50,231 nucleotides of DNA from a virus (taxonomy: Duplodnaviria; Caudoviricetes). Below are positions 45,887 through 50,231 of this stretch, one piece after another. The position numbers and the translations under genes are program-made. The notes beneath the pieces were generated by a model. It was not told where the DNA came from. It saw only the letters and a list, made by a program, of their open reading frames with translations, and searched no databases. Position 1 is the first letter of the stretch, and every line of letters begins with the position of its first letter. The DNA lies in IMG/VR virus record IMGVR_UViG_3300030376_004672, positions 1 through 50,231 of that record. One strand, written 5' to 3'.

Positions 45887-46037
45887 TTTTATTTAATTTT
45901 TTATGGTCAACAAAACGCTTTCTGTGATTCACCTTTCCACTATATTTAAAGTAATGGTTTAGGTCAATCACATTGCGTTGTTGCACCTTGTTTGTCTCCT
46001 GTTGTAAACGGAGAAATTTAATTATATGTTTGGTCAT
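45840..46037 (-). CDS. Hypothetical basic protein
   Basis: 65 aa; ATGA-coupled to the upstream small ORF. Confidence 0.5.
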   Translation of the reverse strand: MTKHIIKFLRLQQETNKVQQRNVIDLNHYFKYSGKVNHRKRFVDHKKLNKNGDKKRPKDISTISK

Positions 46038-46132
46038 AGGTTACTACGAATCCAAAGGTATATCAAACACAATATTGCACCGATGAATGATACAAAGGTA
46101 GCAATATATTTGTCTCTCATTTTATTACTCAT
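46034..46132 (-). CDS. 32-aa membrane microprotein MSNKMRDKYIATFVSFIGAILCLIYLWIRSNL (not in ORF track)
   Basis: Overlaps both neighbours; single hydrophobic helix. Confidence 0.6.
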   Translation of the reverse strand: MSNKMRDKYIATFVSFIGAILCLIYLWIRSNL

Positions 46133-46337
46133 AATTTATTTTTATTTTAAATCGGTCAATCAGCATCAGCTCTATCTCATCATACTTTTCGTTAAAAAAA
46201 TCTTGTGCATGTTCTGTATAGCTAAAGCAATCAGACTCTTTATCATGCACCCAAGTTGCTTCACCAAATCTTTCAGTAGTAATTAGACAAGCAACCTCGC
46301 ATACCACTTCCTTAAATACTTCGTTAGATATTCCCAT
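46125..46337 (-). CDS. Hypothetical acidic protein
   Basis: 70 aa, TAACT-ATG start. Confidence 0.6.
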   Translation of the reverse strand: MGISNEVFKEVVCEVACLITTERFGEATWVHDKESDCFSYTEHAQDFFNEKYDEIELMLIDRFKIKINYE

Positions 46338-46339
46338 AG

Positions 46340-46462
46340 TTATTTATTTAATTGTTTTTGTTTTAACTTATAAAGCTGTTCGTTACAATACATTGCATAC
46401 ATTGTATCGTTGCTTTTTAATGCTAGTCTTAAGCATTCCTTCCAAAATGTTATTTTATCCAT
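46340..46462 (-). CDS. 40-aa microprotein MDKITFWKECLRLALKSNDTMYAMYCNEQLYKLKQKQLNK (not in ORF track)
   Basis: ATAACT-ATG start; stop 2 nt before the next ATG. Confidence 0.6.
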   Translation of the reverse strand: MDKITFWKECLRLALKSNDTMYAMYCNEQLYKLKQKQLNK

Positions 46463-46482
46463 AGTTATTTATTTAGTTTAAA

Positions 46483-46695
46483 TTAATATTCTATTTGTGT
46501 TATTGAGGTTCGCCCTGTTCCATTCTCATAGTGTTTTAATTTTCTCCATTCTATATTAAAGGTAGATAATGATTCATAATCCTCTTTCTCCCTCGTGGAA
46601 TTGTTATCTACTAACCACTTGTCAATATCATTTGTGATATCAACTATATACTCTCGACCATTGCCTTCAGTATATTTTATTATTGCTATATCCAT
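46483..46695 (-). CDS. Hypothetical protein
   Basis: 70 aa in the early gene string. Confidence 0.6.
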   Translation of the reverse strand: MDIAIIKYTEGNGREYIVDITNDIDKWLVDNNSTREKEDYESLSTFNIEWRKLKHYENGTGRTSITQIEY

Positions 46696-46698
46696 AGT

Positions 46699-46860
46699 CT
46701 ATTTTATTAAGTTATTAATTAGTTTTGTTGCTTCTTCACAACCCTCTATCATTTTATTATCTGCATAATCAAATAGTATGTTGTTATGTTCTTCTAACAA
46801 TGCTACTTTTTTTTGCAACGCTCTTACTTGTTCGTGTAAAAAATCTATTGTTTCTTGCAT
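46699..46860 (-). CDS. 53-aa coiled-coil microprotein MQETIDFLHEQVRALQKKV...LINNLIK (not in ORF track)
   Basis: A-rich start context; stop 3 nt before the next ATG. Confidence 0.65.
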   Translation of the reverse strand: MQETIDFLHEQVRALQKKVALLEEHNNILFDYADNKMIEGCEEATKLINNLIK

Positions 46861-46887
46861 TTATATTTAATTTTAAATTAATAATAA

Positions 46888-46998
46888 TAGGCAGAGAGTA
46901 GGGCTACGTTAAACAACTGCGTGGGTTAGCTCTCTTTTAAAAGTTCCACTCCTTTACTTACCTAATTTTATTTGTAACCCTGTGTTACAGGTGTTACA
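46888..46998 (-). ncRNA. Candidate structured intergenic RNA
   Basis: Post-stop hairpin 46973-46998 plus a multi-stem element 46888-46964 that is GC-richer than its flanks. Confidence 0.35.
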
Positions 46999-47355
46999 TT
47001 AATCAATCAGTTCTATATCAGAGATATCAATCTCATCTTCCTCGCTATCCTCATCTACTAGCCAAGCCGGAAGAGTATCTCTCTCTTCAAAGATATTGTC
47101 TAATGTGTAGCTGATTTCATTGTGGTCAATGAGTTCTTGAACAAATACATTCCCCCAATACTTAAGGTCATCATAATCGGAGAACATCCACTCTGCAAAC
47201 CTTTTGCGAGTAATTGTGTATCTCTTTTTTGAATGTGATTTTGTTACATGCTCTTCTACTTTCTTTAAGTAGTCGTTCCAAGTATAAGGGATGTCTCCCA
47301 ATAATTCTCTGTGTCTCTTTTTTTGCTCTAGACCGAGCCACCTTTTTTCTCTCAT
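46999..47355 (-). CDS. Hypothetical protein with acidic C-terminus
   Basis: 118 aa, ATGA-coupled. Confidence 0.65.
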   Translation of the reverse strand: MREKRWLGLEQKKRHRELLGDIPYTWNDYLKKVEEHVTKSHSKKRYTITRKRFAEWMFSDYDDLKYWGNVFVQELIDHNEISYTLDNIFEERDTLPAWLVDEDSEEDEIDISDIELID

Positions 47356-47609
47356 AATTTTCTTGATTTTAGTTTATAATTATCTTCAGCTACGTCTTTA
47401 AGAACTCCCCATATATGTTCTATTGTACAGGGATGTTCCATTACCTCAACAAGTAACTCCATAGCTGTATCTGAATCCGTATCATACAATTCTTGTACGT
47501 CAAATACATTCCATAAGTTAGCTGTTTGGTAGCCGTTTCTTTCAAGGATTACTTTAGCATCGTGTATCCTCTCGTAGCTAGATTCATACTTTTTAAAAGT
47601 GTGTTCCAT
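47352..47609 (-). CDS. Hypothetical protein
   Basis: 85 aa, AAACT-ATG start. Confidence 0.65.
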   Translation of the reverse strand: MEHTFKKYESSYERIHDAKVILERNGYQTANLWNVFDVQELYDTDSDTAMELLVEVMEHPCTIEHIWGVLKDVAEDNYKLKSRKL

Positions 47610-47619
47610 AGTTTTTGAT

Positions 47620-48171
47620 TTAGTTATTAATTACTCTTACTCTTTTCGCATTCCCCTCGCCTTGTTCAATAGAAAAGATATCGCCATATACTTCTAACGT
47701 CTTATCCAAGACATCAAAAGCTCGATATACTTTTATTATTGTCGACTTCTCTTCAATCCATTCTTTTTCTTCACCATTACGCACCCTAATCGTTTGGAGG
47801 TGTGCAGTTATGACTCCGGCATCTTCAACATCCTCACCACTAAATCTTATCTTACCTTTAAGATAAATTCCTTTAGGTTGGAGAAAGTCAGAGACTATAA
47901 ACTTAAGCCAATTAACATATTGATAAAACTTTTGACCTCCGTTCCAAGCTAAACAATGAATGTCGGTTATGCCGTGTTCAACATCGTCAATGATTTCCCA
48001 TTTATTATATATTGATGGAGCTTTCTCTAGACCTCCTCGATAGTCGCCGGAGTATTCACCTGTGGTGTCGTGCCTGTCGTTTAGCCAAACTTGATTATAC
48101 TCATCAAGTTCGTCTTGTGTTAACCTTCTTGATAATGCCATCAGTCCGGTAAAATTGGTTGTGTAACCCAT
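47620..48171 (-). CDS. Hypothetical phage protein (MGY.T.F.G type)
   Basis: 183 aa; WNGG.KFY.YV.WL..I...L...G..L.G.I...GED..D.G pattern. Confidence 0.7.
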   Translation of the reverse strand: MGYTTNFTGLMALSRRLTQDELDEYNQVWLNDRHDTTGEYSGDYRGGLEKAPSIYNKWEIIDDVEHGITDIHCLAWNGGQKFYQYVNWLKFIVSDFLQPKGIYLKGKIRFSGEDVEDAGVITAHLQTIRVRNGEEKEWIEEKSTIIKVYRAFDVLDKTLEVYGDIFSIEQGEGNAKRVRVINN

Positions 48172-48232
48172 AATGTTTAATATTTAATTACAATTTAATT
48201 TAGTGAACACTTTGAAATCTTGTTCAGGATTT

Positions 48233-48354
48233 TAGAACGCAGACGAGGAATCGAACCTCTATATTAATAACCTAACGTCTTGTGTCAAATGGATAAGGGA
48301 GTTATGAGTCTCCTTATCTAAAACCACTTCCGAGCACCATGCTATCATCTGCGT
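48233..48354 (-). ncRNA. tRNA-like RNA A (non-canonical, ~120 nt)
   Basis: 7-bp acceptor ACGCAGA/TCTGCGT, T-arm GAGG-TTCGATT-CCTC, U8, D-like GG, central stem with CTCATAA in the loop, ends T-CTA. Confidence 0.65.
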
Positions 48355-48374
48355 TGCCACTTACAATTACGTTG

Positions 48375-48406
48375 CAATAATACGAATTAATAAATTAATA
48401 AACAAA
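48375..48406 (-). promoter_or_regulatory. Early promoter
   Basis: TTTG-N20-TATTATTG (one mismatch to TAnnTTTG). Confidence 0.7.
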
Positions 48407-48424
48407 TTTTAGACGAACTTTTTT

Positions 48425-49138
48425 TTATTGCTCCGGTTTATAATCCGGATTTGGAGCGTTGTCAGTCGTCAAAACTTGTAGCATAATGGCATCCACAAAT
48501 TGCTGTAAGATGTGTCCATACTTCTCATCAAAGCTATGGTCTTCTCTCCAATTATTTAGCCACCTTTTAAATTCTCGTAGCATAATTGTATTGGTCATAA
48601 ATCTATCCATCCAATTAAGCATATCTTGATAGTAACGAGTTACTATATACTCCTCGTGAATGGTGCAGTTGCCACCACAATAGGAGCAGTCTTCAGCTAT
48701 CTCCTCCATCTCGCCATCGTCATCTTCCTCTTCGTAATACTCCCAACCACTACCACCACACTCACAACAATCCTGAAATACTTCCTCGATGACATTGCAA
48801 TTGCCATTATTATAATAGTCGTAGTAGAATCTACTAGCAATACGAATCAGCTCTCCATTAATGGTTTCAGCTTCAGCAGATTGTGGTACTAGTTTTTTAT
48901 AAAGCTCATCATACTCTTTTTGATAAGCACCCTCATTGTTCCAATAGGTTTTTCCTAAAGGTGTTGATTTGCCGTGATGTTCAGCTGTCTTTTCCATCCA
49001 TTTGCACCAATCGGCTAAAGTTTGTCGAGCATCAATTTTGCTCATACCGAATCTTTTGATTAGGTAGGGTGTCGCACCGAACATATTCGTCTCGCCGGAC
49101 ATCTGCAATTCGCAGAGATAATTAAAATGTGTGTTCAT
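48425..49138 (-). CDS. Multi-domain early protein with DnaJ-like Zn finger and acidic loop
   Basis: SGETNMFGA N-domain; LVPQS..AET..GELIR...R.YYD.YNNG domain; CECGGSG...CSYCGG. Confidence 0.75.
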   Translation of the reverse strand: MNTHFNYLCELQMSGETNMFGATPYLIKRFGMSKIDARQTLADWCKWMEKTAEHHGKSTPLGKTYWNNEGAYQKEYDELYKKLVPQSAEAETINGELIRIASRFYYDYYNNGNCNVIEEVFQDCCECGGSGWEYYEEEDDDGEMEEIAEDCSYCGGNCTIHEEYIVTRYYQDMLNWMDRFMTNTIMLREFKRWLNNWREDHSFDEKYGHILQQFVDAIMLQVLTTDNAPNPDYKPEQ

Positions 49139-49163
49139 AATGTTTACATTTTTATTTAATAAA

Positions 49164-49214
49164 TCCGTTTCATCCTTTCGGAATCATCAGGTGTGATACA
49201 CATCACACTACGGA
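49164..49214 (-). ncRNA. Type III hammerhead ribozyme
   Basis: Minus strand TCCGTA|GTGTGAT-GTGT-ATCACAC-CTGATGA-TTCC-GAAA-GGAT-GAAAC-GGA. Complete CUGAUGA/GAAA core, stems I-III, GUA cleavage triplet (cut between 49209 and 49208). Confidence 0.9.
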
Positions 49215-49234
49215 GGGAATGAACCCCCCTTGTA

Positions 49235-49483
49235 TTAACTCACTCTCTCATATTCGTCTAGCCAATCATTAATGTCGTCTTCGTCTAACCAATAGTTAGT
49301 AAATTCGTTACCTTCTAAAATCAATTCTTTGGCTATGTCCATCATCCCATATTTATCATAGAATAATTCTGAATCAGGGTCTTCAATTTCTGTCTGACCT
49401 ATTTCGTGTAGCCACCCTACTTCGTAACCATCATTGGTTGGTAGGTAGTCAAACACATAGTGTTTTAGTTTTTTATTTGCCAT
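49235..49483 (-). CDS. Hypothetical highly acidic early protein
   Basis: 82 aa, ATAACT-ATG start, D/E-rich. Confidence 0.7.
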   Translation of the reverse strand: MANKKLKHYVFDYLPTNDGYEVGWLHEIGQTEIEDPDSELFYDKYGMMDIAKELILEGNEFTNYWLDEDDINDWLDEYERVS

Positions 49484-49500
49484 AGTTATATATATTTAAA

Positions 49501-49767
49501 TTATTTAACAAAACTCTTTTTCTCCCAAACAAATGAACTGCTCCACTCGTCTTCATCTTCTTGCTTTATCTCTTCAATCTCTTGCTCAATAAATGATTCA
49601 ATCCTATTGAATAGTTCAAGCGTTTGCTCTTCGTTGAGTAGCTCATTATGTTTTATATAGTTAGCTAACCTGTCGTAGTAGCTAAGCTCTTCACCTTCAG
49701 AGTTCCCCAAAAAATTGAAGGGGAAATCTCTGTAAGTGGTGTCGTTTATCCATCCTTTTCCTTTCAT
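49501..49767 (-). CDS. Hypothetical acidic early protein
   Basis: 88 aa, E-rich. Confidence 0.7.
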   Translation of the reverse strand: MKGKGWINDTTYRDFPFNFLGNSEGEELSYYDRLANYIKHNELLNEEQTLELFNRIESFIEQEIEEIKQEDEDEWSSSFVWEKKSFVK

Positions 49768-49776
49768 AGATATATA

Positions 49777-49908
49777 TTAAAATTGAATTGTTGAACCTCC
49801 TGTTGCAATAATGTGAATCACTACTGCTGACCAAGAGACAAGAACAAAGGTTAATACTGCGAATGTTATTACATTCTCTACTGAAATTGATTTGATTTTA
49901 TTTATCAT
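49777..49908 (-). CDS. 43-aa membrane microprotein MINKIKSISVENVITFAVLTFVLVSWSAVVIHIIATGGSTIQF (not in ORF track)
   Basis: ATAACT-ATG start, one hydrophobic helix; first ORF after the rightmost promoter. Confidence 0.65.
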   Translation of the reverse strand: MINKIKSISVENVITFAVLTFVLVSWSAVVIHIIATGGSTIQF

Positions 49909-49928
49909 AGTTATTAGTGGTTTAAAAT

Positions 49929-50017
49929 TAGTAACTAGAAGAGGAATCGAACCTCTTTACTCGTCAGTAGTTATTGGGATAATCAGCTTACGCCTTCTCC
50001 AATATCCAAACCTAGTT
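49929..50017 (-). ncRNA. tRNA-like RNA B (non-canonical, ~86 nt)
   Basis: Acceptor AACTAGG/TCTAGTT, perfect T-arm AGAGG-TTCGATT-CCTCT, stemless D-like TTTGGA, central stem TATTGG/CCAATA, variable hairpin TACT-GACG-AGTA, ends A-CTA. Confidence 0.7.
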
Positions 50018-50084
50018 AACATCTGTTGAAACCTTTTGTATTCGTGAATCCTATTCAACCTTGTTTCGTGTTCCAAAGATTCGA

Positions 50085-50116
50085 CAATAATACGACAAGA
50101 TTTCGACATATACAAG
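50085..50116 (-). promoter_or_regulatory. Early promoter
   Basis: CTTG-N20-TATTATTG; shares TCGTATTATTG with the 48375 promoter. Confidence 0.65.
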
Positions 50117-50231
50117 TTTTTCAGCACTTTTTTTTCGCCAACAGGTTAAACTTTTTTCGTCTCCCCTGTTGAGTTTTGTGTGGTTAAAATCTCATATAGT
50201 GTAATTAAATCTATCGAGTAGCTATCCTTAT

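Follow-up and report, generated by a model that had tools for sequence, protein, structure and literature searches.

A candidate hairpin and type III hammerhead cassette between two small genes of a tailed phage, with a predicted lineage-specific overlap at stem III

The window analyzed here, a single 50,231-nt contig comprising positions 1 to 50,231 of IMG/VR record IMGVR_UViG_3300030376_004672, carries genes of tailed-phage families, with PHROGs matches for terminase, portal, structural, helicase, primase, and exonuclease proteins and a Pfam crassvirus muzzle domain. Its terminase is 45% identical to terminases of Flavobacterium phages, and 86 of the 87 records matched by the terminase are phages of Flavobacterium, Cellulophaga, Tenacibaculum, or Maribacter; a Bacteroidota host is therefore likely. 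The element described below sits amid small minus-strand genes, a block that is probably an early region, between putative ORFs of 82 and 237 amino acids (Table 1), neither of which matched a family in Pfam or PHROGs. Homologs of the 82-aa ORF were found at eight loci (68–97% identity), and copies of the 237-aa ORF that are 97–99.6% identical occur in three orthologous loci (L282, L283, and L284); a search of viral contigs with the 237-aa protein returned one weak match and no useful relative.

Several other elements were seen in this region. No tRNA was detected by ARAGORN in the window, and a tRNA-like structured element missed by both ARAGORN and Rfam lies at 48360-48230 on the minus strand (-33 kcal/mol), with a closing stem, a T-arm-like hairpin, a CAT anticodon-like loop, and long insertions; it is 97–100% conserved in L282–L284, and its 3' part matches L030 and L032. 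A second T-arm-like hairpin (49999-49926, minus strand), preceded by a CUGACGA heptamer that resembles half of a hammerhead core and has no matching GAAA, matches the T-arm part of the 48360-48230-type element in L282 and L283. Similar promoter-like words (CGTATTATTG) stand on the minus strand upstream of both small-gene blocks (50100-50080 and 48390-48370), and also upstream of the tRNA-like element in L282–L284. Behind homologs of the 82-aa gene at L031:2830-2890 and L032:2836-2890, a long near-perfect hairpin takes the place of the cassette.

Table 1. Coordinates of the cassette, its predicted folds, and the flanking reading frames in the window
Feature	Position	Strand	Basis or remark
Upstream 82-aa ORF, putative	49235..49483	-	Stop codon TAA at 49237-49235
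Spacer of 5 nt from stop to hairpin	49230..49234	-	Pairing of its first three bases with GTA is confined to a minor form (probability about 0.2)
Hairpin in family-typical abutting register (A-U, three G-C, two G.U)	49214..49230	-	Ends at U-5; frees -4 to 0
Hairpin of 6 bp (G6/loop/CCCTCC) in register invading stem III	49212..49229	-	Folding
Stem III 5' strand and GUA cleavage triplet	49209..49214	-	Sequence, Rfam RF00008 alignment; predicted cut 49209/49208
GUA triplet (NUH type)	49211-49209	-	Sequence
Stem I, 7 bp, 4-nt loop	49191..49208	-	RF00008 alignment; would form the 5'-terminal hairpin of the downstream product
Catalytic core CUGAUGA	49184..49190	-	Core scan and RF00008 alignment
Stem II: U10.1.U11.1 mismatch, 3 bp, GAAA loop	49172..49183	-	RF00008 alignment
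Core GAAA and stem III 3' strand	49164..49171	-	Sequence, RF00008 alignment; GAAA is 49171-49168
Predicted inactive fold	49157..49189	-	MFE; 49189-49184 with 49162-49157, 49182-49179 with 49167-49164
Downstream 237-aa ORF, putative	48425..49138	-	Start codon 70 nt past predicted cut

By sequence, the minus strand at 49214-49164 holds a complete type III hammerhead: CUGANGA, GAAA, and an NUH triplet (here GUA) are all present, stems I and II are closed by loops, and stem III, with 4 bp plus A15.1-U16.1, forms the open end. The U-U pair U10.1-U11.1 is a known natural variant (PMC3088659). The Rfam model RF00008 matches the motif over the full model length at 28.7 bits (E 0.0023), short of the 48.5 set as its gathering score, and this is the sole Rfam hammerhead match within 47500-50231; at the gathering threshold Rfam gave no match in the window, and the 20 related loci scanned all stayed under every Rfam threshold as well. 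The motif is thus classed as a hammerhead on the strength of its core and topology and not through membership in the curated Rfam family. Its stems differ in sequence yet remain paired in relatives (which were selected for pairing), and its loops resemble those of many relatives; natural type III hammerheads use a tertiary contact between loops I and II (PMC6155905). Self-cleavage after GUA would be expected of such a motif. Three runs of presumed-RNA contigs gave one 38-nt partial match, lying off the cut site.

The initial annotation had placed a hairpin directly behind the upstream stop codon, closed by TAC/GTA pairs, with a 3' arm that includes TCCGTA and ends at the cut site. Its coordinates and letters are correct: TAA (49237-49235) is followed by the spacer (49234-49230), six Gs (49229-49224), the loop (49223-49218), CCCTCC (49217-49212), and GTA (49211-49209), with the cut between 49209 and 49208. 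With the A at the cut numbered 0 and upstream bases negative (-1, -2, and so on), U-5, C-4, and C-3 pair with the upstream arm at a probability of 0.98–1.0, and the 6-bp core is the minimum free energy (MFE) structure of 49237-49209 (-11.1 kcal/mol, z -2.83, 2 of 200 shuffles as good). Of the proposed hairpin, only this core is firm. The TAC/GTA extension, at -9.9 kcal/mol versus -11.1 for the core, was rejected as a main feature (probability about 0.2); G-2, U-1, and A0 pair with the upstream arm at only 0.16–0.26, and an arm that reaches through TCCGTA to the cut belongs to this minor form only. With six Gs opposite three Cs, the hairpin can also slip, to a register with one invading pair (-8.0 kcal/mol) or to one that ends at U-5 and leaves -4 to 0 free (-6.2 kcal/mol), and in the constrained active fold a hairpin ending at C-6 sits beside the four-pair stem III. 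The mutual exclusion of hairpin and ribozyme that had been proposed thus holds for the claimed register but was rejected in its strict form, since the U-5 register can coexist with the ribozyme. In that abutting register the window hairpin is weak (-5.5 to -6.2 kcal/mol; z 0.57 for the stretch from -45 to -5) and would miss the cut-off of -7 kcal/mol set below for strong hairpins.

Relatives were collected in three viral pattern scans (29, 123, and 123 loci, the third covering 32 of 64 parts), to which five upstream-gene loci were added; with the window these made 281 sequences, and filters on the stems and on upstream sequence (at least 75 nt) left 152 distinct type III hammerheads in 118 clusters at 85% identity. 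The scan patterns were seeded on the window motif, so this set represents its subfamily, not all hammerheads. A strong hairpin, defined as one of at most -7 kcal/mol within the 45 nt upstream of the cut, was found in 80 of the 118 clusters and was absent from 38, and 73 clusters fold better than shuffles at z ≤ -2. These strong hairpins mostly start 4–14 nt past a stop codon, and 55 of the 80 end at -5 (33) or -6 (22). Such a hairpin was present at 58 of 86 gene ends with a hammerhead behind them versus 20 of 117 other gene ends (long spacers). Across the 55 abutting clusters, positions -12 to -6 are paired in 48–55, with five or six pair types per position, a high level that is partly by construction given that the strong-hairpin set was defined with -4 to 0 kept unpaired. 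Pairing is seen in 54 of 55 clusters at -6 and 34 of 55 at -5; from -4 to 0, observed versus expected counts are 5/5.0, 23/26.2, 26/25.6, 31/31.0, and 13/12.5. The conserved helix ends where stem III starts. The abutting position, the mixed pair types, and the enrichment at gene ends with a hammerhead lend support from conservation to the earlier suggestion that the hairpin caps the new 3' end. A scan of GTDB gave 102 pattern matches, from which three clusters passed the stem filters and one has an abutting strong hairpin; in MW202828, which is closest among named phage genomes (terminase identity 74.6%), the filter used found no type III hammerhead.

Other arrangements were also recorded among the relatives. 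Nine of the 152 hammerheads (L013, L019, L026, L104, L124, L170, L207, L238, and L272) are preceded by a second upstream module that is not the G/C hairpin, namely a weak hairpin with conserved flanks CCTRAG...AAAACT, and L030, L039, L283, and L284 hold similar sequences; the module had no Rfam match in the loci scanned and may be a protein-binding or other RNA motif. Two or three cassettes within 1.2 kb lie between small genes in L283:1-3028, L030:640-990, and L416; the window has one, and its contig stops about 1 kb upstream. Hammerheads 87–89% identical to that of the window over 56 nt, stem I loop included, lie in two short records (L009:44-93 and L014:44-93; 366 and 377 nt), lengths like those of plant satellite RNAs.

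The three orthologs recovered in the metagenome scan allow a closer comparison. L284, from a second assembly, is identical to the window across the whole element; L282 and L283 have letter-for-letter the same hammerhead, with runs of G7/C5 and G6/C4, respectively, and a longer 3' arm, that of the window being 2–3 bases shorter than in L283 and L282. The core, stems, and loops of the hammerhead are invariant in the four orthologous loci (upstream proteins 84–97% identical to that of the window), and the run lengths of the hairpin vary. Behind five more distant homologs of the upstream gene no hammerhead core was seen, and in L282 a different gene lies directly downstream of the cassette; on both counts the cassette is modular.

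Competition between the hairpin and stem III is predicted for this copy. In naked-RNA models, which omit the loop I-loop II contact that favors the active fold, the active fold lies 5.1–5.7 kcal/mol above the ensemble with the upstream arm and 0.8 kcal/mol above it without; the probability of native stem III in the full precursor is about 0, and the penalty reaches 8.8–10.2 kcal/mol at 20–10 °C. The MFE structure of the whole precursor is inactive, with the freed stem III partner pairing with stem II letters and the core pairing with 49162-49157, letters that are the same in three orthologous loci. Two-state behavior, with the inactive fold favored by these 5.1–5.7 kcal/mol when no signal is present, is thus found in prediction only. 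The competition is predicted to come from two G-C pairs, not from the whole strand: the hairpin, being short and having three more bases in its G run than in its C run, would shift into stem III by two pairs and make the naked RNA cleave more slowly. Equally strong invasion arose in 30 of 400 shuffles of the 21 nt from the stop to base -4. L282 and L283 are predicted to invade by one pair (C-4 paired at 0.92–0.99, C-3 at 0.13–0.26), with invasion of -2.2 and -2.5 versus -4.3 kcal/mol in the window, and invasion by two pairs is limited to the window and one identical copy.

The initial annotation had further proposed that a ribosome terminating at the upstream stop codon melts the 5' arm of the hairpin and thereby licenses cleavage. 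Relative to 5.73 kcal/mol for the free RNA at 37 °C, the penalty of the active fold is 5.64, 2.85, 1.14, and 0.83 kcal/mol when 5, 6, 7, and 9 nt past the stop, respectively, are held unpaired; predicted gating requires 6–7 nt to be covered, and 5 nt bring no gain. In bacterial ribosomes, the mRNA channel accommodates 11 nt on the 3' side of the +1 base of the P site (PMC7282821), which corresponds to 5–6 nt past an A-site stop, depending on counting. The mechanism is therefore possible in these models, with a borderline geometry that hangs on one base. The predicted gates of L282 and L283 amount to 2.4 and 1.1 kcal/mol at 6 nt and to 2.9 and 3.2 kcal/mol at 7 nt, so that the three distinct orthologous variants have at least one invading pair and gates of 1.1–2.9 (6 nt) and 2.9–4.6 (7 nt) kcal/mol; with more upstream context, the penalty of L282 changes from 3.65 to 1.99 kcal/mol and its gate falls to 1.3. 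This modeled overlap with stem III, shared by the clade, is the best evidence for a translation gate; with three variants from a single clade, selection and inheritance cannot be told apart.

Comparison across the family does not support a selected switch. When stem III tails were permuted among the 118 upstream regions, mean invasion was -1.06 (native) versus -1.04 (permuted) kcal/mol (P 0.36), with 14 strong invaders (≤ -3) versus 11.1 (P 0.09); upstream modules placed on other hammerheads gave a gate of at least 1.4 kcal/mol in 98 of 510 swapped versus 15 of 85 native combinations (P 0.88). Shuffling of the 12 nt before the hairpin left the native sequence the weaker invader in 37 and the stronger in 17 of 55 clusters (P 0.08). 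Among 35 non-orthologous copies in which no more than 36 nt separate the stop from the cut, the median 6-nt gate was 0.26 versus 0.72 kcal/mol with random flanks (P 0.03), and eight reach 1.4 and one reaches 2.8. Other short G-run hairpins were drawn from 40 loci, of which the 13 with a type III hammerhead were kept and the others dropped; all 13 abut stem III, with a median invasion of -0.36 and none at or below -4, and the 7-nt gate is at least 1.4 kcal/mol in 5 of the 10 copies having a stop. The window ranks fifth of 152 for invasion and first of 85 for the gate (4.6 kcal/mol), the latter rank being partly the result of reader selection because the locus was chosen for that feature. Its arm gates 62 of 84 foreign hammerheads, and the gating property therefore resides in the long G run. 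Taken together, the sequences show no sign of selection for invasion and a slight tendency against it across the family; a family-wide translation gate was rejected by four swap/shuffle controls. Covariation in relatives, named in the initial annotation as a check on its proposal, turned out unfavorable, with stem III positions pairing at chance in the 55 abutting clusters and swap/shuffle controls null or opposite: from -4 to 0 competing pairing is at chance, and an overlap of one pair occurs within one close clade only. Of that proposal, the predicted competition and a borderline ribosome geometry survive, and a selected switch finds no support in the comparison.

The motif and its hairpin recur in related phages, and the hairpin has a conserved stop at the edge of stem III. 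We favor, with a probability of roughly 0.6, the reading that hairpin and type III hammerhead form a cassette that processes a long message and likely caps the new 3' end of the upstream mRNA. Lying between two small phage genes, the cassette would cut the long transcript after GUA. From hammerhead chemistry, the upstream piece would carry a 2',3'-cyclic phosphate behind the hairpin and a tail of 5–6 nt, whereas the downstream piece, with a leader of 70 nt, would start at stem I with a 5'-OH; from what is general in bacterial RNA decay, both new ends would thereby be protected against nucleases. After the cut, the window hairpin would adopt its stronger register, and the overlap may merely reinforce a short cap. 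A ribosome on the stop codon may relieve the predicted slip into stem III, a relief that on the comparative data is probably incidental to one lineage and not the purpose of the cassette. Such ribozymes have been proposed to process polycistronic phage RNA (PMC3088659; PMC6765202).

Other explanations have to be weighed against this one. In this lineage the cap hairpin could have been turned into a ribosome-operated latch, a selected gate in which the hairpin sequesters stem III, the freed strands go into the inactive fold, and a ribosome at the stop codon removes G1-G2, so that the message would be cut only after the 82-aa gene has been translated. The predicted penalty indeed falls from 5.7 (free) to 2.85 (6 nt covered) and 1.14 kcal/mol (7 nt covered), the invading Gs are the first Gs beyond the spacer, the window ranks 1 of 85 with L282 and L283 also invading (C-4 at 0.92–0.99), the orthologs share the inactive fold, a 6-nt gate of at least 1.4 is predicted for 8 of 35 other short-spacer copies, and splicing of the T4 td intron, which requires upstream translation, offers a precedent (PMC3073962; PMC3017892). 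We nevertheless consider such a latch unlikely: with 5 nt covered the penalty is 5.64 versus 5.73 kcal/mol, and the channel spans 5–6 nt past the stop (PMC7282821); the family-wide controls are null; the registers of the orthologs differ (one pair in L282 and L283, two in the window), and the L282 penalty depends on context (3.65 to 1.99); none of the five more distant upstream-gene homologs has a hammerhead core behind it; and loop I-loop II contacts, absent from the energy model, favor the active fold. If true, the latch would be a natural translation-gated small self-cleaving ribozyme.

A slightly more doubtful alternative is a leaky terminator or pause hairpin combined with a ribozyme, in which the hairpin, together with a stem III strand that contains some U, would stop or pause part of the polymerases, and ribozyme cleavage of the transcripts that read through would leave almost the same 3' end. 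G/C-rich hairpins that mostly begin 4–14 nt past a stop, and a U run behind the hairpin in some relatives (L018, L061, and L260), would fit this; the window tail, however, has only 2 U in 6 bases, and no terminator-like site occurs in 46000-50231, where 1.8 were expected. Canonical intrinsic terminators, scored as a G/C hairpin with 5 or more U among the next 8 bases, were accordingly rejected for 46000-50231. Most doubtful of the three is a misfolded, largely silent copy in which the G/C-run slip traps the ribozyme and cleavage is rare. It would account for a native stem III probability of about 0, a penalty of 8.8–10.2 kcal/mol at 20–10 °C, and a 3' arm 2–3 bases shorter than in L283 and L282, but it sits poorly with a core, stems, and loops invariant in four loci whose upstream proteins are 84–97% identical and with an identical cassette in a second assembly (L284).

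The closest known systems are the intergenic hammerheads of phages and prophages described by Perreault et al. (2011; PMC3088659; RF00008), with which the window motif shares type III topology, the full core, GUA, U10.1-U11.1, and a position between small phage genes; it differs in scoring 28.7 bits, under the gathering score of 48.5, and in its stem III-abutting hairpin, of which the available excerpts of that paper make no mention. The motif matches 52 Pseudomonas phage records at 80–90% identity (83% over 47 nt in the 20 listed). One Pseudomonas Bruynoghevirus copy, L387:38-84 (JN254801.1), resembles the window motif as a type III hammerhead with a U.U pair and ends immediately ahead of a start codon; this one Pseudomonas phage copy examined has no strong abutting hairpin (-2.8 kcal/mol, ending at -11). 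Intergenic phage hammerheads and their proposed processing role (PMC3088659; PMC6765202), ribosome-assisted ribozyme folding (the td intron), and flank-controlled self-cleavage (hepatitis delta virus, HDV) are already known, and the biological role of bacterial and phage hammerheads is described as an open question (PMC6765202; PMC6155905). Our literature search found no report of a natural hammerhead gated by translation and none of a phage type III hammerhead with an abutting hairpin; hairpins of this kind may be present in the supplementary alignments of PMC3088659.

The T4 td group I intron is the working precedent for the translation-gate model: the ribosome prevents mispairing between upstream sequence and ribozyme, and an in-frame stop adjoins the ribozyme, as proposed here (PMC3073962; PMC3017892). 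That system is a splicing intron with an experimentally shown effect, whereas the window has a small self-cleaving ribozyme with a predicted one. In the HDV genomic ribozyme, as described in PMC4615214, the 5' flank Alt1 inhibits through alternative pairing, like the competition predicted for the window, and an upstream hairpin, P(-1), relieves the inhibition, with antisense oligos rescuing cleavage; HDV differs in ribozyme class and host and involves no ribosome, and in the window the hairpin itself is the predicted invader. Because it is the family's extreme of predicted self-inhibition, the window locus is the best single construct for the question of translation gating, with L282- and L283-type variants and ordinary abutting copies as natural controls. 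That dozens of unrelated copies have a hairpin halting right where stem III begins suggests a specific function, which would be to yield hairpin-capped single-gene messages without transcription termination. Engineered insulators of the RiboJ type combine self-cleavage and a hairpin to give messages defined, structured ends, the added hairpin lying downstream of the cut. The hairpin of the window, in contrast, lies upstream of the cut and would cap the 5' product.
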